Positions 22,157-43,942 of a stretch of DNA of 64,000 nucleotides are shown one piece after another. A model generated the notes under the pieces. The model had not been told where the DNA came from and searched no databases. It saw nothing but the letters and a program-made list of their open reading frames with translations. Each line of letters opens with the position of its first letter. The stretch's first letter is position 1. The stretch is from Candidatus Altimarinota bacterium (lineage in GTDB: Bacteria; Patescibacteriota; Gracilibacteria; BD1-5; UBA6164). The stretch is taken from the NCBI GenBank assembly GCA_020629795.1, contig JAHDCR010000001.1, positions 88,443 to 152,442 on the forward strand, given 5' to 3'. A program made the position numbers and the translations under genes.

Positions 22157-23143
22157 ATGGATAAAAAAGCAGCATTACAAAATGCGCTCGATATGATCGA
22201 GAAACAATATGGAGCAGGTTCTATCATGAAACTTGGAGATGAAGATAGAGCTAAAAAGGTAGCAACTAGTTCTTCAGGATCACTTTCACTCGACCTTGCT
22301 CTCGGTGGTTGATATGCAAAAGGACGTATAGTAGAAATCTACGGTCCAGAATCATCAGGTAAGACAACTCTTACCCTTCACGCAATTGCAGAAGTTCAAA
22401 AAGCAGGAGGAACAGCCGCATTCATAGATGCGGAGCATGCTCTGGATCCTAGTTACGCAGAAAAAATAGGGGTGAATACTTCAGAGCTCATTATCTCTCA
22501 ACCAGACTACGGTGAACAAGCATTAGAAATATGTGAAAAGCTTGTAAACTCATGAGCTGTTGATCTTATCATTGTCGATTCTGTTGCTGCCCTTACACCA
22601 AAGGCAGAAATAGAAGGTGATATGGGTGATTCTCATATGGGTCTTCAAGCGAGACTAATGAGTCAAGCACTCAGAAAGATAACGTGAGCAATTAACAGAA
22701 GTGGTTGTACCGTAATATTTATCAACCAAATTCGTATGAAGATTGGAGTTATGTTTGGTTCACCTGAAACAACGACAGGTGGTAATGCTCTCAAGTTCTA
22801 CGCATCACAAAGACTTGATATCAGAAGAAAGGAAAAAATTGAATCAGGAACTGGTATGGATAAAGAAATAAATGGGAATAAAACCAGAGTTAAAGTTATT
22901 AAAAACAAAATTGCTCCTCCATTTAGAGAAGCAGAATTTGATGTAATGTACAATGTTGGTATCTCAAAAGTAGGTGAGCTCGTAGATATCGGAGCTACTA
23001 CTGGTGTTATCAAAAAATCAGGAGCATTCTATAGCTACGGGGAAACTCGACTTGGGCAAGGAAGAGAAAACGCAAAAAACTTCCTACTTGAAAATCCAGA
23101 AATGGCTGCTGAAATTGAAGAAGTAATCAAAAATAGTATTTAA
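22157..23143 (+). CDS. recA: Recombinase RecA
   Basis: [24 protein letters not shown] (third Gly of GGG is TGA 22310-22312), [48 protein letters not shown]. Confidence 0.97.
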
Positions 23144-29326: not shown

Positions 29327-31219
29327 ATGTGAAAAATTATTGGTATCGATCTTGGTACGACTAATTCAGCTGTTGCCTTTATGGAAGGTGGTGAAGCAAA
29401 AATCATCCCAAATGCTGAAGGAAATAGAACAACTCCAAGTATCGTAGCAAACAAAGATGGAAGTATTATTGTGGGGACTCCAGCAAAAAGACAGGCTATC
29501 ACTAACCCTGCAGGAACAATATTTTCTGCAAAAAGATTCATTGGTAGAAAATATGATGAAGTAGCTGATGAAATAAAAAACGTTCCATATGAAGTAGTAA
29601 AAGGAAAAGATGGAGCAGCTCTTATCAAATTTGACGGAAAAGAAGTGAGACCAGAAGAAATTGGAGCGCATGTACTTATGAAGCTCAAAGAAGATGCTGA
29701 AAAATTTCTTGGTTCTACTGTAACTGAGGCTGTTATTACCGTTCCTGCTTACTTTAATGATGATCAAAGACAAGCTACTATCAACGCTGGTAAAATCGCT
29801 GGTCTTGAAGTAAAAAGAATCGTAAACGAACCTACAGCTGCTGCCCTCGCGTACGGAGCTGGAAAAGGAAAAAATGAAAAAATTGCAGTATACGACTTTG
29901 GTGGTGGTACATTTGATATTTCTATCCTAGAGCTTTCTGACGAAGGAACATTTGAAGTACTCTCTACAAACGGTGATACGCACCTTGGTGGTGATGACTT
30001 TGATAAAATAATTACAGAGTGGATTATTGATGAATTTAAAAAGGATCAAGCAATAGACCTCGCTAATGACCCAATGGCACTCCAAAGAGTACGTGATGAA
30101 GCTGAAAAAGCGAAAAAAGAACTCTCTACTACTCAAGATTATGATATCAATCTACCATATATCACGGTTGACTCATCAGGACCTAAAAACCTCATGATGA
30201 CACTGACTCGAACAAAGTTTGAAGAACTCATTTCAGACCTTGTGGAAAGAAGTTTAAAACCTTGTAAAGAAGTACTGAAAGACGCTGGTCTCAAAGCATC
30301 TGATCTCAATCAGGTACTTATGGTTGGTGGTTCTACAAGAGTACCACTTGTTATGCAAAAAGTTGAAGCATTCTTTGGTCGTAAACCTAATACAGGTATC
30401 AACCCAGATGAATCAGTAGCGATGGGTGCTGCTATCCAGGCAGGTATCATCGGTGGAGACGTTACAGATGTACTTCTCCTCGACGTTACTCCTCTCACGC
30501 TCGGTATAGAAACTATGGGTGGAGTACGAACTCCTATGATCGCAAGAAATACAACGATTCCAGCGAACAAATCAGAAACATTCTCAACGGCTGTTGATAA
30601 CCAACCTAGTGTTGAAATCCATGTACTCCAAGGAGAACGAGAAATGGCTGCAGACAATAAATCTCTCGGTAGATTTATGCTTGACGGTATTGCTCCAGCT
30701 CCAAGAGGAGTACCACAAATCGAAGTATCGTTTGATATCGATGCAAACGGGGTTCTCCACGTAACAGCAAAAGATAAAGGAACTGGGAAAGAACAAAAAA
30801 TTACTATCCAAGGATCAACTGGTATGGACGAAGCAGAAGTTGATAAACTCGTAAAAGAAGCAGAAGCAAAAAAAGAAGAAGATAAAGCGAAAAAAGACAT
30901 GGTAGATGCTCGAAACGGTGCTGACTCGGCAGTAGCTCAAGCTGAAAAGCTCATGGCTGATAATGCTGATAAAGTAAGTGAAGAAGATAAAACACTCCTC
31001 GAAGATAAGATTAAAGATGTTAAAGAAGTTCTTGCAAAATCAGACGCAACGAAAGAAGATTTTGAAGCTCCAAGTAAAGCACTTCAAGACGCACTTATGC
31101 AAGTAGGACAAAAAATCTACTCTCAAGCTGACGCGTCTGAAGCTCCTCAAGATGGAGCAGCAGAATCTCAAAAAGCTGATGGTGAAGATGATGTTCAAGA
31201 TGGTGAAGTAGAAAAATAG
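29327..31219 (+). CDS. dnaK: Chaperone DnaK (Hsp70)
   Basis: True start is ATG 29327 followed by TGA, giving [27 protein letters not shown] and other Hsp70 motifs are present. The track ORF 29381-31219 is the in-frame remainder. Confidence 0.98.
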
Positions 31220-35717: not shown

Positions 35718-36248
35718 ATGCAAAATCCTCAAACCGTAAATACAATAATATCTCCTTTTTGGAATACAGTAACGCTTGAATCAATGATAAAGTTCTGCGT
35801 TATATATTTTTTTGTGGTTTGGATTGGACTGATTATCTGGGTTGCCAGAGATATTAGTTTTCGAAGTAATAGTAGGTTTTTTCAGGTCTTTTGTATTCTC
35901 ATAATGATATTTCTCACTCCACTGTGAGTATTTATATATCTGCTTATTAGGCCAAGAAAAAGTATATATGAAAAGTGTAGCACTGAGATAGAATGAAATT
36001 TAGAAATACTCGCTGAAATAGTCCAAGAAAGAATCGAAAGTGATGTAGATGAGCAGGAAAATACTGAGCTCTCTTGCCCGAAATGTGAAGAGGAAATACA
36101 AAATGATTTCATCATATGTCCAAAATGTAAAACTTCACTCAAAGATACCTGTCACGAGTGTCATAAGATAATAAGAGAAAGTTGGAAAGTGTGTCCCTAC
36201 TGTGAAACAAAGCAAAAAAAGAAGAAACATAAAAAAAACAGCGATTAA
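35718..36248 (+). CDS. Membrane protein with PLDc_N-type N-terminal domain and double zinc ribbon
   Basis: FVVWIGLIIWVARDI...IFLTPLGVFIYLLIRPRK, followed by CPKCEEE...CPKCK...CHECH...CPYCE. Confidence 0.55.
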
Positions 36249-36262
36249 TTCGCTGTTTTTTT
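36233..36262. terminator. Palindromic bidirectional terminator with TTAA loop
   Basis: aaaaACAGCGAttaatTCGCTGTtttttt. The stops of both convergent genes (36246-48 plus strand, 36245-47 minus strand) sit in the loop. Confidence 0.7.
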
Positions 36263-36763
36263 GTTGATATAATGTCTATAATATCAAACTAAGTTACTCC
36301 CTAAAAAGATACTTTCAAGTAATACTCACACTGGTGAAAATATAAGAAAGTTATATAAGATTATACAACTTGTCCCACACATCATAAATTTCCTTAATGA
36401 TTTATCGTCTTTCTGAAATACTCAAAAAGTTACGAAGGTTATTCAAATAAAAATAATTAAATCATAAATATCTTTATAAAAAAGATATGTAACTCAAGCA
36501 AAAATAATTGTAAATAAGTATATGAGATATGTGTTAGTTTTATGATATGAGACAAAAAATCTTATTATTCACACTGCTATTATAACAGCTGCTGCATATC
36601 TCTCCAGAAGTAAGTAATGTAATCAAATACAGCTCGCAGCTACCATAAAGAATATGATGATCTTCTTTCGATCTTTAAATTGAAACGAAAATACATCAGC
36701 TACAATTGCAATTCAAGCAAGTATCTGTGAAGCGAGAAATGGTAGAGTGAGTCAGAAAAGCAT
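36245..36763 (-). CDS. YgjV-like inner membrane protein (tentative)
   Basis: 172 aa and about 5 hydrophobic helices. Assignment is by size and pattern only. Confidence 0.45.
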
Positions 36764-36767
36764 AATT

Positions 36768-37328
36768 CTATATTAATCAAATAATAGCTTCTAAGTATTT
36801 TTTATGAGCAATATCATGTCATACTCATAACACTCTAGCATTATGATTTATTTTTAAATTCTTAATCATTTTTTCTGCTCTCTGCTGCAACCTTTCAGGT
36901 TCATCAAGTCCATATATTGAGACAAGTGTATTACTCTTTCTATTCTGTATATCTGACTCGTGATAATTATCTCGAAAATCATTCCATCTCCGTACTCCAA
37001 GTCTCAGTTTATAATACTTAGGAAATAGATGTAAATCTTCGGAAAAATATGGTGAAAGAGAACAAAGAAATACTCTGTGAAGCACATGTTTTTCGGAAAG
37101 TTTTAAAGCTATCATAGCACCAAATGAAAATCCTAAGATTTCAGTATTTTCACTTTCTTGTATCTGTAATTCAGCCTGCTGAATATAGTCAGACATTACC
37201 CTAAACTTCCATGAAATTTCAACAAAACATACCTCATATCATAGATTCTCTAGTTTTTTGATAAGCTCCATATATCATGGAGTCTTTATATCATGCTTAT
37301 ATCAAGGTATTAGGTATATTTTTTTCAT
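36768..37328 (-). CDS. Alpha/beta-fold serine hydrolase
   Basis: MKKIYLIPGY..., EILGFSFGAMIAL (GxSxG), C-terminal GVGHDIAH. The track fragment 36825-37196 extends at both ends through TGA. Confidence 0.6.
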
Positions 37329-37331
37329 AGT

Positions 37332-40300
37332 CTACTTAACCACTAAATTCACAATCTTCCCTGGAACGTAAATTTCTTTTACAAGTGTTTTCCCTTCGAG
37401 CCATTTAGCAACTGATTCATTAGCTTTTGCTTTTTCTAGCACTGAGTCTTTATCCTCTCCTACTGCTATAGTAATTTCTCCTCTGAGTTTTCCAAGTACT
37501 TGTACTCAGATAGTAATCTCATTGTCTACCGTCATAGTGTCATCATATTCTGGCCAAGATGTAAAGAATATAGAATTTCCTTGATATCCAAAAAGCTCTG
37601 CAAATGCTTCTAATTGTCATCCAAACTCTACAAAATAATCTTCTTCAGTTGCTTCATGATGTCTTTTTCCTGTATATTTAGACACGTAAAGACTATTCAT
37701 TGGGAAATATGGATTTAATTCACCTTTTTTAATATCTGTAAGAGTATATTCTCGTCTATATTCAAGAGTTTTCACTTCTCCATTTGGATAGAGAATAGCC
37801 CATGAATCTATATAATGATAATCTAATTTTCCTCCAGCCTGGGATGCTTTTTCCTGGTAGTATGTTATCATGAGTTCAGCTATTTCTTCCTGAGTACACT
37901 CTGATTCTTTTTTTCCTGCAAGTTCAAGTGCTGTTCTTTTGACCTTTGTAGGTTCAAAATCAAAATCTGCATCTCCAAAGTGAATAGATGTATCTGTTGC
38001 TACAATTGGAGCATCAATATCTTTTCATTTATAGACTTCAATCTTTTGAAGCACACATTCAAGTGAAGTTTTCCCTGTTTCTTCTACATCTATAATATCT
38101 GAATATTTTTCTATAATTGCATCTGGATTTAGTCTAGTAAATATTTTTTGAGCCCTCTCTAATTTTGCAGCATTTCCTGTAGCAAAATATACTTTGTCAT
38201 AAGTCTCTCAACTCCCTCACCTCTGAATCTCTTCTCCCTTGGAGGAGAGGGTAGCTTCATTCACCATTTCCCAGCACTCTTCTGCCATATGTGGAGCAAA
38301 TGGATGAAGCAGCTGAATAAATGTTCGTTTCCACTCAATATTTTTCTGTTCATCAACTGGTTCTCCAGTATTGAGAAGAATCATCATTTGAGCAATTGCT
38401 GTATTAAACTTGTAGTTTTCTATATCTTCCTGTATTTTTTTAATCGTTTTGTGAAGTGTCTTCATTGCCTGCTCATCAGATTTTGCTGGTCTCGGATTTT
38501 CTCAGCTCATCATTGCGTAGAACTTATCTAGAAATCTCTTCACCCCAACAATACTACTCGTATCCCACGGTGCTGCATCCTTGAAATCAGCCATATACAT
38601 CTCGTACATTCTGAGCGTATCAGCTCCGTACTGCTCTACTATATCATCTGGATTTATAACGTTTTTCAGTGATTTAGACATCTTTGCTGGAATTTTTTCC
38701 AGCTCTTCACCCGTTTCTATATCAAAGTATTTCCCATCTTTTTCTTCCATCATATCATTCGCAATGAGTCTGCCTGCTGAGTTTCTATAACTCATACCAA
38801 GAATCATCCCTTGATTTCTGAGTCTATAAAATGGTTCTGAAGTAGAAACTACTCCAATGTCATAGAGGAATTTATGCCAGAAACGTGCATACAGTAGGTG
38901 AAGCACTGCGTGTTCTGCACCACCAACATAGCTATCAACCTGTCACCAATATTTTTCCACTTCACTTCATACCAGTGAGTCAGAATTGTTATTATCCATA
39001 AATCTGAGATAGTACCAACATGACCCACCCCACTGTGGCATCGTGTTTGTTTCTCTCTTTCATGCTAGATTGACAGCAAGCTGCACGTTTACAAACTCGT
39101 CCACTTTTGTAAGTGGTGAAGTTCCGTCTCAAGCTGGCTCGTAGGCATCTACTTCTGGAAGTTTCAGTGGTAGCTCGTAATCACATACTATCTTCCCATA
39201 AATACCGTCATAGATTTTAGAAAATTCTTTCTCCCCAATCATCAGCATATCACCATCTCGAACCCAGGCATCATCGCTTGGACTCGTAGGGAGTTGCGCT
39301 ATATCTGCTGCGTCTAAATGTATGAGTGGTATTGGTTCTCCCCAGTATCTTTGTCTACTAAAGAGCCAATCTCTGAGCTTATAATTCGTTGTCTTGTGAC
39401 CAAATCATTTTTCTTCTGCTAAATCTGTAAACTTCTCTTTTGCCTCCTGTGAAGTAAGTCCGTTAAATTCTCCTGAGTTAACAAGTTTTCCATATTCTGT
39501 TGTGGCTCTTTGTCATTCTTGAAATACACTCCAAGCACTTAAATGCGCTTGCCAAGTAATTAAATTAGATACCTCCTCTTTTTCAACCCAGACTCCTGAA
39601 TGATGTCATTCATCTATTTCAGATTGAATTCTTGAATCACTTTTTAACTTAGCGTAAAAAAATCTTCACCACGTTCTCTGATTTTTTTGTTTTGTATGTC
39701 TGAAGCCTTGAGAATAGAAATATGTTCACTCAATATCTCAAATAATTTCTATATCATCATATCATGATTCTTCTACCACCTCTTTTAATACAGTCTCTAG
39801 TTCAGAATCTCATTCCTCTATACCTCATCAAATGAAATGGTAATCTTTCGGCTCATTTTCTTCAATAACAAATATTTCTCCTGCATCATTTTCTAAAATC
39901 ACATCAATCACTTGTCTATTTAGAGTTTCAACTCACTCTCTTTCAGCAGAAACTCAAGTATGAATGTTATTTTTTGCTATACTCTGCTTCACTTTTAAAT
40001 CATACTTTTTTGCAAATTCAAAGTCTCGCTCGTCGTGGGCAGGGACAGCCATAACAGCTCCTGTACCGTAAGAACCAAGGACATAGTCAGCTATCCAGAG
40101 AGGAACTTGTTCCCCGTTGTATGGATTGATGACATAACTCCCGGTAAAAACTCCGGTTTTTTCTTTGTCATCTGCAGTTCTATCTTGGTCAGATTGTTTT
40201 CCAGCTTTTGAAATATATGCTTCACATGCCTGTTTTTCACTCTCAGCAATAAAGTCTGCAACATCTGGATGATCTGGAGCAATTACTGCGTAAGTCATAC

Positions 40301-41060
40301 CAAAAACAGTGTCTACTCTCGTAGTGTACACTCTGATAGATTTCGTGTCATCATCTGATTTTTTGAGTTCAAACTCACATCCCTGAGATTTACCTATCCA
40401 GTTTCGTTGCATATCTTTAATACCCTCTGGCCAATCAAGGTCATCAACATCGTTTAAAAGTCTCTCAGCGTATTTTGTAATTGCGAGAACCCATTGTCTT
40501 ATTTTCTTCTTTTCTACCTGTGTTCCACATCTCTCACAGCTAAAGTCACCGAGTACTTCTTCATTTGCAAGACCTGTTTTACATGATGGACAATAGTTAA
40601 TTGGGAGATCTTGCTCATAAGCTAGCCCCTTTTCAAAGAGTTTCAAAAATATCCACTGTGTCCATTTGAAATACTCAGGATCTGTTGTGTCTATTTCTCT
40701 CTCCCAGTCATAAGAAAATCCAAGAGACTGGATTTGCCTCTTAAATGTAGCAATATTTTCATCTGTCGTGATGCGAGGATGAGTCCCTGTTTTGATCGCA
40801 TAGTTTTCAGCAGGAAGACCAAAAGCATCCCAGCCCATAGGATGAAGTACATTATATCATTTTGCGTGTTTATAACGAGCTACAATATCATTGGCTGTCA
40901 TTCCTTCAGGATGTCCAACATGGAGTCCAGCTCCCGATGGATACGGAAACATATCCAGACAGTAGTATTTAGGCTTAAGAGAAGTATTACTCGTCTTAAA
41001 AGTATTATTTCGCATCCAATAGTCTTGCCATTTTTTTTCTATTTCTTGGTGATTGTACAT
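37332..41060 (-). CDS. leuS: Leucyl-tRNA synthetase with two large in-frame domain insertions (1242 aa)
   Basis: Five track fragments share one frame and are joined by [15 protein letters not shown] (HIGH), CP1 editing domain, [45 protein letters not shown] (KMSKS), C-terminal [14 protein letters not shown]...[13 protein letters not shown] stop 37332-37334. Confidence 0.9.
37578..38261 (-). other. Ham1/ITPase-like domain inserted in the LeuRS C-terminal region
   Basis: About 228 extra aa between [15 protein letters not shown] and [54 protein letters not shown] follow the RdgB/Ham1 pattern (ATGNxxK, EETG, DDSGL). Confidence 0.6.
38214..38255. repeat. CT/GA-rich hairpin element inside leuS (copy A)
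   Basis: CCCTCACCTCTGAATCTCTTCTCCCTTGGAGGAGAGGGTAGC, with stem CTCTTCTCC/GGAGGAGAG. Shares CCCTC..CTCTGAATCTC with the intergenic copy at 46476-46520. Confidence 0.55.
39498..39953 (-). other. Nudix-hydrolase-like domain inserted after the LeuRS CP1 editing domain
   Basis: About 150 extra aa between ...[14 protein letters not shown] and [14 protein letters not shown]. Nudix-box-like [23 protein letters not shown] (39759-39830; the consensus E and R are replaced by D and K). Confidence 0.65.
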
Positions 41061-41478: not shown

Positions 41479-41832
41479 CTATGAAGTACCAAGAATTGAA
41501 CCAACAATCCATTGTACGATTGAAGAAGCTAGGAATATTACAACAAGACCGATTGCAGCTTGTATAAGAATTGTTTTCCCTTTTTTCACTTTTTCTTCAT
41601 CACCACCAGCAGTAAGGATATTAAATCCACCCCAGAGAGCAAATACTACAGCGATTAAGTATAAAAAAGTAATTGCGTTCGCGATAAGTACTTGGATAGC
41701 ACTATCAGCTCCCTCGTTTGAACCTTTTAATTCATCATCAACTCTTACTGACCCTACATTCATTACTGCACCTGCAAAATTTGCATGGAGAGCAACACTA
41801 GTAGCAGCACCAGCTTTTAGTATATTTTTCAT
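41479..41832 (-). CDS. TrbC/VirB2-like (T4SS-type) pilin-family small membrane protein
   Basis: Signal-like N-terminus, then LYLIAVVFALWGGFNILTAGGDEEKVKKGKTILIQAAIGLVVIFLASSIV. This is a two-TM pattern common in CPR pilin-like proteins. Confidence 0.5.
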   Translation of the reverse strand: MKNILKAGAATSVALHANFAGAVMNVGSVRVDDELKGSNEGADSAIQVLIANAITFLYLIAVVFALWGGFNILTAGGDEEKVKKGKTILIQAAIGLVVIFLASSIVQWIVGSILGTS

Positions 41833-41957: not shown

Positions 41958-42521
41958 ATGAATATAGACAGAGAAAGATTTTTAGAAAAATTAAAACTAC
42001 ACTGAGAAGCAAATGATATCCCAAATATCAGTAAAGAAAATGCAAAATACCTACGAAATATGCTGGCTACAAATGAAGTAAAACAGCTCTTAGAAATAGG
42101 AAGTGCAAATGGATATTCTACTATAAATTTTGCAATAGAGCTTGAAAAAACTTGATGAAACATAACTTCTATAGAATTTTCACAGCTAGCCTATGAAGAA
42201 GCGCAAGATAATTTTAGAGAAGCTGGAGTATCTGATATTATTCGTCATTATTTTTGAGATGCGAGGGAGATTCTCCCTCTCTTAGAGGAAAAATATGATT
42301 TTATTTTTATAGACGGTCTCAAAAAAGAATCCCTTAATTTCTTACAAATAGTTTGGGACATGGCTCTACCATGAGCTACAATTGTGATTGATGATGTTAT
42401 AAAGTTTCGATATAAAATGGAGTCACTCTATAAATATGTTGTAGCAGAAAAAATAGATCATGAAGTTATTCAGATAGACAGTGATGATGGAATTATGATT
42501 ATAAAAAAGCCCTGTAATTAA
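41958..42521 (+). CDS. Class I SAM-dependent O-methyltransferase
   Basis: LLEIGSANGYSTINFA (motif I), YDFIFIDGLK, TIVIDDV. 187 aa. Confidence 0.8.
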
Positions 42522-42637: not shown

Positions 42638-43942
42638 CTATTTTGCTTCTGCAAAAAACGTATCTATAAGTCTTCTATATGCCACTCTTCTTCTCAGTTC
42701 TTCAAAGTATTTCGTTCCTGGAACATAGAGTTCTTTTAGTCTTTTTAATACATCTTCTGAACCGTAGTTTTTCATGATTTTAGCTACTTCTGATTCCATA
42801 TCCTTATCACTTACTTCGATTTTTTCTTTTTTCATAAGTTCGTTCAGGATAAGTTCTCCTTGGAGTCTCTTAATAGCTGTTGCCTCTACATGTTGTTTTT
42901 TGTATTCAGCTGTAGAGAGTCCAAGACTCGCAAGGTAATCCTCAACTTTTACTCCATCTTTTGTAATATTTTGTTTAATTTCTTCAAATACAGTATCTGT
43001 TTGTTGGGCTATGATTTTATCACCTAACTCAAGAGTAGTATGTTTTAGAAGTTCTTCAATAAGTTTCATTTCTCTTTCCATACCATCATTAGCCTCCTTA
43101 GTTTCCATAAGTTCAGCCTTAATAAGCTTTTTAAATTCTGGAAGTTCCATTTTTTGTCCTCTGAGTCCTTCGATAAATTCTGGAGTAAATTCTGGTTTAT
43201 GTGCTTTTTCAAGTTTCTTTGCTGTAACTTTGAATTGAGTTTTCTTACCTGCAAAATCAGCATTATGATAATCTTTAGGAAAAGTTACATCAATATCTTT
43301 CGTTTCCCCAACTTTCATTCCTACCATATCTTCCTCAAAACCTGGAACAAGAATGTTTGATCCAAGTACGAGTGGATAATCCCTCATAGATGTAGCTTCA
43401 AGCATTTCATCGTTTTCATATCCATCAGTATCTATAGTGAGTTTATCACCCATAGCTGCTTTGATTTTTGGATCTGTAACATCATGAAAATGAGTAAATC
43501 TCGTTTCAATATCTTCGAGAGCTGCTTTTACTTCTGCAGCTGATACGCTCAGTTTATCTTTTGTAAGTTTTACTTTTTTGTATGTATCCTTTACCTCAAC
43601 ACTTGGAAATACTTCTACTTGTATTTTTACTTTGAGTGGGTCTTGAGAAATAACTTCTTGTATTTCAGCCTGTGAAACTGGCATAAGATTCTCTTTTCTG
43701 AGTGTATCTCTATACACTCCTTCTATAGCTTTTTCTATAGTCATTTGCAGAATAACATCTTCTCCGAATTGACGTACTATAACATCTTCTGGTATAGTAG
43801 CTCCTTTTCTAAAACCTTTAATATCAGCATTTTTTGCAGCTGATTTTAAAACTTCTTTTCTAAACTTTGCTACATTCTCTGCTGATTCCTCAATTATGAG
43901 TTCAACAATAGATTTTGGAAGCATTTTTTTCTCTACTTTCAT
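42638..43942 (-). CDS. tig: Trigger factor
   Basis: Intact 434-aa track ORF. N-terminal ribosome-binding GFRKG, FKBP-type middle domain, no TGA codon. Confidence 0.93.
   Translation of the reverse strand: MKVEKKMLPKSIVELIIEESAENVAKFRKEVLKSAAKNADIKGFRKGATIPEDVIVRQFGEDVILQMTIEKAIEGVYRDTLRKENLMPVSQAEIQEVISQDPLKVKIQVEVFPSVEVKDTYKKVKLTKDKLSVSAAEVKAALEDIETRFTHFHDVTDPKIKAAMGDKLTIDTDGYENDEMLEATSMRDYPLVLGSNILVPGFEEDMVGMKVGETKDIDVTFPKDYHNADFAGKKTQFKVTAKKLEKAHKPEFTPEFIEGLRGQKMELPEFKKLIKAELMETKEANDGMEREMKLIEELLKHTTLELGDKIIAQQTDTVFEEIKQNITKDGVKVEDYLASLGLSTAEYKKQHVEATAIKRLQGELILNELMKKEKIEVSDKDMESEVAKIMKNYGSEDVLKRLKELYVPGTKYFEELRRRVAYRRLIDTFFAEAK

Follow-up and report, generated by a model that had tools for sequence, protein, structure and literature searches.

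Bacterial leucyl-tRNA synthetases (LeuRSs), as represented by the solved enzymes of T. thermophilus (1h3n) and E. coli (4aq7), are proteins of 860-878 amino acids in which the HIGH-type and KMSKS motifs, the ZN1 region, the threonine-rich and aspartate motifs of the CP1 editing domain, the anticodon-binding domain, and the C-terminal domain share a collinear arrangement. All of these elements are also found in the LeuRS encoded by a 64,000-nucleotide stretch of DNA from a Candidatus Altimarinota bacterium (contig JAHDCR010000001.1, positions 88,443 to 152,442), which is hereafter called the window. However, this LeuRS is 1242 amino acids long, and it adds a 154-amino-acid Nudix domain, a 34-amino-acid segment, and a 230-amino-acid domain with an ITPase fold.

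Aminoacyl-tRNA synthetases (aaRSs) more generally are recognized as scaffolds that gain domains while their canonical function is kept. Well-known additions include those found in CP1 and at the C terminus of eukaryotic LeuRSs, as well as the WHEP, GST, and EMAPII domains, and these are mostly terminal binding or regulatory modules of eukaryotic enzymes. The additions in the window LeuRS differ in that they are whole small-molecule hydrolases, placed in internal loops of a bacterial synthetase, and gained or lost among close relatives. A full-text literature search yielded no report of a Nudix or Ham1 domain nested in LeuRS or in another aaRS, and a check of a review of the beta-grasp fold likewise turned up none. 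In public annotation, such proteins are listed either as leucine--tRNA ligase or as 'NUDIX domain-containing protein, partial'. The component families are well known; what is surprising is the nesting of whole enzymes in the loops of a bacterial synthetase, their turnover, and a tie to aaRSs that runs through the Nudix family.

When the leuS region is read with translation table 11 it is broken into short open reading frames (ORFs), whereas code 25, in which TGA specifies glycine, gives a single ORF of 1242 amino acids. A phmmer search of the PDB with this product aligns it to T. thermophilus LeuRS (1h3n) at E 3e-195 in four collinear blocks, from which the parts of the gene can be laid out as follows.

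37332-41060, minus strand: complete leuS, 1242 codons plus a TAA/TAG stop, code 25, with 23 in-frame TGA codons read as Gly.
39975-41060, minus strand: LeuRS residues 1-362, with the Rossmann catalytic core, HVGH, the ZN1 region, and most of the CP1 editing domain (block 1, residues 2-362, aligned to T. thermophilus 4-363).
39513-39974, minus strand: insert 1, a Nudix domain, residues 363-516 (154 amino acids), in a CP1 surface loop (Pfam and 1h3n alignment).
39543-39917, minus strand: stretch of insert 1 matching Pfam NUDIX PF00293, residues 382-506, model positions 3-129 of 134 (E 4.6e-13 with the whole protein).
39759-39827, minus strand: Nudix box, G412-x5-D418-x7-K426-E427-V-V-E430-E431-S-G433-Y434.
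39285-39512, minus strand: residues 517-592, the C-terminal part of CP1 and the return to the catalytic core (block 2, aligned to T. thermophilus 374-449).
39183-39284, minus strand: extra segment of 34 residues, 593-626 (1h3n alignment).
38268-39182, minus strand: residues 627-931, the second half of the catalytic core with KMSKS and the anticodon-binding domain (block 3, aligned to T. thermophilus 449-792).
37578-38267, minus strand: insert 2, a Ham1/RdgB/ITPase-fold domain, residues 932-1161 (230 amino acids; Pfam and proxy model).
37335-37577, minus strand: C-terminal domain, residues 1162-1242 (block 4, aligned to T. thermophilus 797-877).

The first insert replaces a 10-residue loop of the T. 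thermophilus enzyme (residues 364-373). In isolation it matches the Pfam NUDIX model with E 1.3e-14 and 54.8 bits (cut-off 21.1) over model positions 3-130 of 134. The Pfam model of the LeuRS editing domain is interrupted by it, such that positions 1-147 of 185 precede the Nudix domain. Because this model is split and the residues that follow the insert align to T. thermophilus 374-449, in an enzyme whose editing domain reportedly spans residues 224-417 (Cusack et al. 2000), the Nudix domain can be placed inside CP1. An earlier, sequence-only reading of this DNA had recognized the Nudix-like domain, and the near full-length Pfam match, the LeuRS sequence in frame on both sides, and the model of a relative described below agree with it, as does the exact presence of its quoted insert peptide in the code 25 ORF. 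That reading had located the insert after CP1, which proved incorrect. Its estimate of about 165 residues, compared to about 20 in E. coli, came close to the 154 and 10 (T. thermophilus) given by the alignment, and its coordinates (39498-39953) are equivalent to residues 370-521.

Compared to the Nudix consensus GX5EX7REUXEEXGU, the box retains both glycines and the glutamates of REUxEE, with the conservative changes of E to D (D418) and R to K (K426). It had been described in just these terms for positions 39759-39830, a span that also takes in G411, and both changes are typical of the subgroup to which the domain belongs. Four glycines in this 24-codon stretch are written TGA (G411, G412, G417, and G433), rather than the two noted before, although the box-defining glycines, G412 and G433, are indeed both among them. 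Statements about structure rest on proxies that are 57-75% identical to the window sequences, namely a Nudix-bearing LeuRS relative (P0143) for the synthetase and its Nudix domain, and a segment of another relative (P0121) for insert 2. In an AlphaFold2 model of P0143, whose Nudix domain is 57% identical to that of the window, the Nudix region has a predicted local confidence (pLDDT) of 90-96, and strands are predicted at 378-412, the box helix at 419-431, and then more strands and two C-terminal helices.

Inserts of this kind must be examined for trivial origins, which here would be an assembly chimera, a frameshifted separate gene merged through the reading of TGA as a sense codon, or an intein. 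The insert does have a composition unlike that of its surroundings. TGA makes up 11 of its 15 Gly codons (73%) but only 12 of 77 (16%) in the rest of leuS (Fisher p 1.9e-5), and its GC content is 0.316 compared to ~0.40 in the core; for the Ham1-like insert the corresponding values are 4 of 18 Gly codons and 0.341. Other genes in the window cover a spread of composition that includes the Nudix insert, however, and LeuRS sequence continues in frame on both of its sides, neither half of which would function alone. The same layout recurs in many independent assemblies, including the complete genome of the cultivated Ca. Absconditicoccus praedator, whose LeuRS (P0189) bears a Nudix domain, and a GTDB metagenome-assembled genome (L001). 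TGA codons also occupy positions at which glycine is invariant, in the LeuRS core as well as in the Nudix box. As the sequence-only reading had held, the junctions (...SIAKNN / IHTG... and ...QEGQR / ATTEYG...) have no intein hallmarks: Pfam gives no intein or Hint domain match in the LeuRS protein, and a repeat search around the insert found only short direct repeats of chance size and no inverted repeats. An artefactual origin is therefore close to negligible, and the sequence evidence supports the view that residues 363-516 form an in-frame Nudix-fold domain in LeuRS, and not an intein or a gene of their own.

The synthetase that carries this domain has all of the LeuRS signature motifs. 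The motifs HVGH (at 47), TTRVDT (the Thr-rich motif of CP1, at 246), HDERD (at 342), and KMSKS (at 793) are found, and Pfam matches include PF13603, PF00133, and PF08264. Its class I motifs, CP1, anticodon-binding and C-terminal domains, and collinearity with a solved LeuRS place it among bacterial LeuRSs. The full-length P0143 model (pLDDT 86.4) and the E. coli enzyme superpose with a template modeling (TM) score of 0.85. Judged by sequence, the host enzyme is otherwise complete and presumably functional. The extra segment at 593-626 lies at the site of the zinc-binding CxxC of T. thermophilus (HCEACG), whose cysteines are gone in the window LeuRS (HLDAAD), and it varies from 0 to ~190 residues among relatives (e.g., P0147 and P0133).

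TGA codons in leuS fall on columns that hold glycine in correctly translated relatives, both in LeuRS (residues 68, 552, 644, 667, 706, and 1185) and in the Nudix domain (G412 and G433), and TGA accounts for 35% of Gly codons in the long ORFs of the window, with a range of 0-92% per gene. On these grounds the source organism is taken to use the Gracilibacteria/Absconditabacteria code, and the closest database relatives of the LeuRS carry the label Candidatus Gracilibacteria. Both the LeuRS core and three long ORFs (29327-31219, 42638-43942, and 22157-23143) are almost devoid of TGA, which is frequent in many others. Most database entries for LeuRSs of this clade have been translated with code 4, which shows Trp instead of Gly at TGA; in some entries up to ~70% of conserved glycines appear as W, and both profile matches and automated annotation are degraded.

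LeuRSs bearing a Nudix domain are not confined to this organism. A search with the insert and short flanks retrieved LeuRS fragments of Parcubacteria, Berkelbacteria, and other Patescibacteria that have a Nudix domain with a canonical box at the same site. Among the closest 120 full-length LeuRS clusters, a Nudix box is present in 45, a Ham1-like motif in 25, and both in 4, and LeuRS lengths range from 834 to 1429 with a median of ~1000. The sequence-only reading had overlooked the widespread occurrence of such proteins in Patescibacteria, as well as the Ham1/ITPase insert. A scan of GTDB with the window Nudix peptide yielded no confirmed locus, and one with the Ham1 alignment was successful. 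One protein (P0142) was considered as a LeuRS whose CP1 core is replaced by the Nudix domain, and was rejected because it is only truncated at its N terminus.

A profile built from the embedded Nudix domains was searched against 1.84 billion representative proteins and matched 19,075 of them at a threshold of E <= 1e-3, of which 800 remained at E <= 1e-10 and 101 at E <= 1e-30. LeuRSs or LeuRS fragments account for ~110 of the 150 best matches, and in these the domain lies mostly at the CP1 loop. Some LeuRSs among the profile matches carry the domain at a different loop, around core residues 210-240, around 675, or immediately following 592, and some have two or three copies in tandem. With Nudix enzymes of the MutT and Ap4A hydrolase types (NUDT2/RppH-like), the domain shares PF00293, the ExxEE glutamates on the Nudix helix, and a size of ~140 amino acids. 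It differs from them in that its family is remote (profile E ~1e-8) and has motifs of its own besides the box, (F/Y)-x-x-x-K-x-x-N and H-x3-W, and in that the subgroup found in the window has K for R and D or E at the first acidic position and is nested rather than free. By its sequence, the Nudix domain belongs to a distinct family of Patescibacteria, the candidate phyla radiation (CPR).

Useful hints regarding activity come from the pattern of conservation. A pattern search found the Nudix box in 54 of 132 LeuRS sequences. None of the 54 varies at the Glu that follows R/K, at either residue of the EE pair, or at the flanking Gly, even though identity to the window domain drops to 21-30%. The corresponding residues (E51, E54, E55, and G57) are likewise invariant in every row of a 16-sequence family alignment, and the free-standing family members that were inspected have the same REhxEE core. 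Among the ~20 members of the subgroup to which the window domain belongs, Lys regularly replaces Arg, as at K426, and D and E alternate at position 418. Since both residues are usual there, D418 and K426 are best regarded as lineage traits and not as decay. One relative outside the box pattern (P0148) carries Ala in place of R/K and Gln in place of the first acidic residue, with the catalytic glutamates still present. The overall conservation indicates that the active site is under purifying selection, and we infer that the domain is an active hydrolase, that is, a catalytically competent pyrophosphohydrolase.

The same comparisons bear on the proposal that the domain is a non-catalytic module, in which the Nudix fold would bind tRNA-Leu or a partner, or would regulate the movement of CP1 between its aminoacylation and editing states. 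Inactive Nudix-fold domains do exist elsewhere, as in the C-terminal domain of MutY and in CFIm25. A box that is off the strict consensus (D418, K426, and Y434), the substitutions in P0148, and rapid evolution, with 50% identity between domains where the cores are 90% identical, would all be accommodated. However, a purely structural role would not be expected to preserve the Glu triad and both box glycines in all 54 boxes and in all 16 aligned rows, nor the REhxEE core in free-standing members, and close relatives function without the domain. A non-catalytic role is consequently improbable.

One clue to function is the company that this Nudix family keeps. In a ProRS (P0360, L015:2906-4837), a family Nudix domain follows the anticodon-binding domain and precedes the C-terminal domain. 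Also among the profile matches are ~25 free-standing proteins, 143-199 amino acids long, that start with Met and share the family motifs. Genomic context was taken for 11 of these, all with E <= 1e-27 in the family profile search; the ten with locus DNA have E values of 1e-34 to 1e-45 against the family profile (8.3e-39 for P0270). Their neighborhoods are as follows.

P0270: ends 2 bp upstream of a leuS that itself has an embedded Nudix domain.
P0305 (L024:3001-4853): its TAA lies 3 bp before the ATG of an insert-free, short-loop leuS in a standard-code genome.
P0387: precedes thrS.
P0378: 13 bp after argS and upstream of ileS.
P0321: lies directly ahead of a class I aaRS fragment.
P0308: part of a cluster of same-strand genes flanked by metS and leuS.
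P0272: after fpg.
P0362: near UDG and another Nudix gene.
P0315: adjoins another Nudix gene.
P0392 and P0366: unrelated contexts.

Direct adjacency to an aaRS gene, by free-standing genes for proteins of ~160-180 amino acids, is thus found for 5 of the 11, compared to ~4% expected for a genome of ~1000 genes (binomial p ~5e-5), a value that has to be read with caution since the sample is small (n=11) and not phylogenetically independent, with P0270 and P0305 sharing synteny. Judging from its gene order, the L024 arrangement appears to be the split, or unfused, counterpart of the nested Nudix-LeuRS. Nesting together with operon adjacency is a classic signature of a functional or co-expression link. 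Beside one free-standing family member there is an IleRS-like gene of 1184 amino acids (L027:4094-6498) in which a histidine-phosphatase domain (PF00300) lies between two tRNA-synt_1 matches, another nested enzyme in a class I aaRS.

Our preferred reading, to which we assign a probability of roughly 0.45, is that the Nudix domain, as a member of a family associated with aaRS genes, acts as a Mg-dependent pyrophosphohydrolase that clears an Ap4A-type by-product. The nested module would work on its own, apart from the chemistry of aminoacylation and editing. E427, E430, and E431 on the Nudix helix would bind Mg2+ and cleave the pyrophosphate bond of a nucleoside-diphosphate-X substrate, and the most likely role would be to clear a dinucleoside polyphosphate of the Ap4A (diadenosine tetraphosphate) type, a nucleotide by-product of aaRS catalysis, with a damaged NTP, as for MutT, following closely as the candidate substrate. 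Ap4A is made by aaRSs from aminoacyl-adenylate and ATP, and a by-product of this kind is favored because the family is linked to aaRS genes. In a search of the PDB with the single Nudix sequence, the best matches were the Ap4A hydrolases 1f3y (E 0.005) and NUDT2 (E 0.012), both weak. Ap4A hydrolases are reported to be marked by an aromatic residue (Tyr) ~17 residues past the box (Dunn et al. 1999), and on loose inspection the family alignment has F or Y ~13-19 residues after it. Assignment of the substrate from homology was tried and rejected as unreliable, and NCBIfam equivalogs (RppH, MutT, YfcD, and others) score far below their cut-offs.

Because the domain lies within CP1, a role in proofreading must also be considered. 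A Nudix domain near the synthetic or editing site could hydrolyze a non-cognate aminoacyl-adenylate or a related intermediate and thereby provide an extra form of pre-transfer editing. Its position within the editing domain and the ties of its family to several editing aaRSs (LeuRS, ThrRS, and IleRS) would fit such a role. However, Nudix enzymes cleave diphosphate bonds, and an aminoacyl-adenylate is an acyl-phosphate that has none. Furthermore, the domain is also found at other LeuRS loops, in tandem, after the anticodon-binding domain of ProRS, and as a separate protein; since its position varies across hosts, precise placement near the active site is not conserved. CP1 also retains editing motifs of its own. 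Integrated proofreading is therefore very improbable. The sequence-only reading had suggested hydrolysis of an adenylate or dinucleotide species; the first of these is chemically unlikely for the aminoacyl-adenylate, and the second, as a dinucleoside polyphosphate, is indirectly supported by the link to aaRS genes and may apply.

The second insert of the LeuRS provides another perspective on these nested domains. It lies between the anticodon-binding and C-terminal domains, where it replaces a 4-residue linker (T. thermophilus 793-796). Its matches to Pfam Ham1p_like PF01725 score 24.2-27.7 bits (cut-off 22.5) and cover only the first 71 of 186 model positions. A segment of P0121 that is 75% identical to insert 2 was modeled with AlphaFold2 from a 23-sequence alignment (pLDDT 87.8), and the top 30 Foldseek matches of this model in the PDB are all Ham1, RdgB, or ITPA proteins (E 3e-10 to 4.5e-7, target-normalized TM <=0.77). 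In the numbering of the P0121 segment, N32, K35, E63, K75, and D92 are invariant in 23 embedded Ham1-like copies, and from the resemblance of the motifs these presumably correspond to N10, K13, E41, K53, and D69 of RdgB. The embedded family keeps ATGNxxK, EETG, QK, and a single invariant Asp of the DD pair, and the C-terminal base-binding motifs were not recognized in it. The domain thus shares its fold, as modeled by proxy, and its N-terminal motifs with Ham1, RdgB, and ITPA, and it differs from these in being nested in LeuRS at either of two sites and in having Pfam coverage of its N-terminal third only. On the strength of the proxy model, it is a second nested domain with a predicted pyrophosphatase fold in the same LeuRS.

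The other site of the Ham1-like domain is near the start of CP1, where it is found instead in P0138, P0141, P0145, P0155, and L014. This region, at positions ~17-22 of the editing-domain model, constitutes a second insertion hot spot in LeuRSs of the clade, and its occupants include a GNAT domain (P0169), Ser_hydrolase domains (P0207 and P0215), a PD-(D/E)XK domain (P0137), and a Ham1 domain (P0141). There are three nested domains in P0137 and two Nudix domains in P0215.

Comparisons with the nearest relatives bear on the evolution of the Nudix module. The closest LeuRS cores (P0121-P0136 and L002; 86-91% identity over the N-terminal core) have a Ham1-like domain at the same site and lack the Nudix domain. 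One of them (P0127) resembles the window LeuRS with its Nudix domain cleanly excised, and the two have the ...ATTEYG junction in common. The genome L001 has the same two-insert layout as the window, with identities of 90% for the core, 74% for the Ham1 domain, and 50% for the Nudix domain. The Nudix domains nearest to that of the window (P0177, 63%, and P0144, 60%) instead reside in remoter cores of 77-80% identity. Among close relatives, the loop from HDERD to KLRDW varies from 75 to 227 residues. These sequence comparisons suggest that the module has been repeatedly gained, lost, or exchanged at a hot-spot loop. The module could plausibly have moved by recombination with lineages in which TGA usage is heavy; the alternative is that a less constrained segment has drifted faster.

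Several observations weigh against the clearance of an Ap4A-type by-product, in addition to the limits of the neighborhood sample. D418 and K426 differ from the strict Nudix consensus. LeuRSs of the clade also host unrelated Ham1, GNAT, Ser_hydrolase, and PD-(D/E)XK domains, as would be expected of a tolerant scaffold, and since the closest relatives lack the Nudix domain, it must be dispensable for LeuRS function. LeuRS is a weak producer of Ap4A, and ArgRS is not known to make any. When the family profile is run against the PDB, equal scores of ~1e-8 are obtained for MutT-type proteins and for 1f3y, an Ap4A hydrolase. Some free-standing members adjoin fpg, UDG, dUTPase, or other Nudix genes and not an aaRS gene, and an M17 leucyl aminopeptidase (P0354) has a nested GNAT-Nudix-GNAT arrangement.

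Many of these observations would be explained if the domain were a hitch-hiking sanitizer, in which a MutT-like Nudix domain, and likewise the Ham1/ITPase domain, occupies a tolerant loop and is functionally unrelated to LeuRS. Nesting in an essential, constitutively expressed gene would secure co-expression in a tiny genome with few regulators, and the linkage to aaRS genes would mirror nothing more than shared housekeeping operons. Such an explanation fits the presence of an ITPase-fold domain, a classic sanitizer, in the same LeuRS, the diversity of domains at the second CP1 hot spot, the two alternative sites of the Ham1 domain, and the occurrence of the Nudix family in the M17 peptidase. 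It also fits the free-standing members beside fpg, UDG, and dUTPase, the MutT-type proteins among the best PDB profile matches, and the presence or absence of the Nudix domain among near-identical LeuRS cores. What it leaves unexplained is that 5 of 11 free-standing members adjoin aaRS genes of four or five specificities, and that LeuRS and ProRS, although of unrelated aaRS classes, both have family members nested in them, neither of which would be expected from chance or from scaffold tolerance. Hitch-hiking of this sort is a serious possibility, somewhat less probable than the Ap4A-type reading.

The link to aaRS genes that underlies the Ap4A-type reading can be extended into a bolder proposal, although one that we consider rather unlikely to hold in full. 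According to this proposal, the CPR Nudix family would be a dedicated partner of aaRSs (LeuRS, ProRS, ThrRS, and ArgRS/IleRS), whether as an adjoining gene or as a nested domain, that destroys an Ap4A-type alarmone at its source. The Gracilibacteria LeuRS would be modular, with a handful of hot-spot loops at which recombination among lineages exchanges small enzymes (Nudix, ITPase, GNAT, serine hydrolase, and PD-(D/E)XK) in the manner of cassettes.

The genes that surround leuS can be described briefly. Upstream are a small T4SS-pilin-like membrane protein (41479-41832, minus strand; PF18895, E 6e-11) and an O-methyltransferase (41958-42521, plus strand; PF01596, E 4e-17). A 186-amino-acid ORF (36768-37328, minus strand) lies 4 bp downstream of leuS and has a sub-threshold Abhydrolase_5 match (E 0.007). 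Kinship of this ORF with the Ser_hydrolase domains nested in the LeuRSs of P0207, P0215, and P0240 was considered and rejected, as there is no significant similarity. A YgjV-family inner membrane protein (36245-36763) is encoded downstream of this hydrolase-like ORF.

There are a number of ways in which these nested domains might inform the biology of Patescibacteria. The architecture of bacterial aaRSs is conserved to a degree found in textbooks, such that extra complete enzymes in their loops, up to three per protein, are unexpected. Genes of this kind are fragmented or mistranslated unless code 25 is applied, and the layout is therefore easily missed in automated annotation. The patchy presence of the Nudix domain, the discordant similarities of domain and core, and the distinct codon usage of the insert offer a natural system for the study of domain insertion and exchange in essential genes. 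Fusion, nesting, and operon adjacency tie one Nudix family to several synthetases, and this tie provides a testable lead to a housekeeping function in the CPR, in which the clearance of Ap4A or of damaged nucleotides may be coupled to translation.

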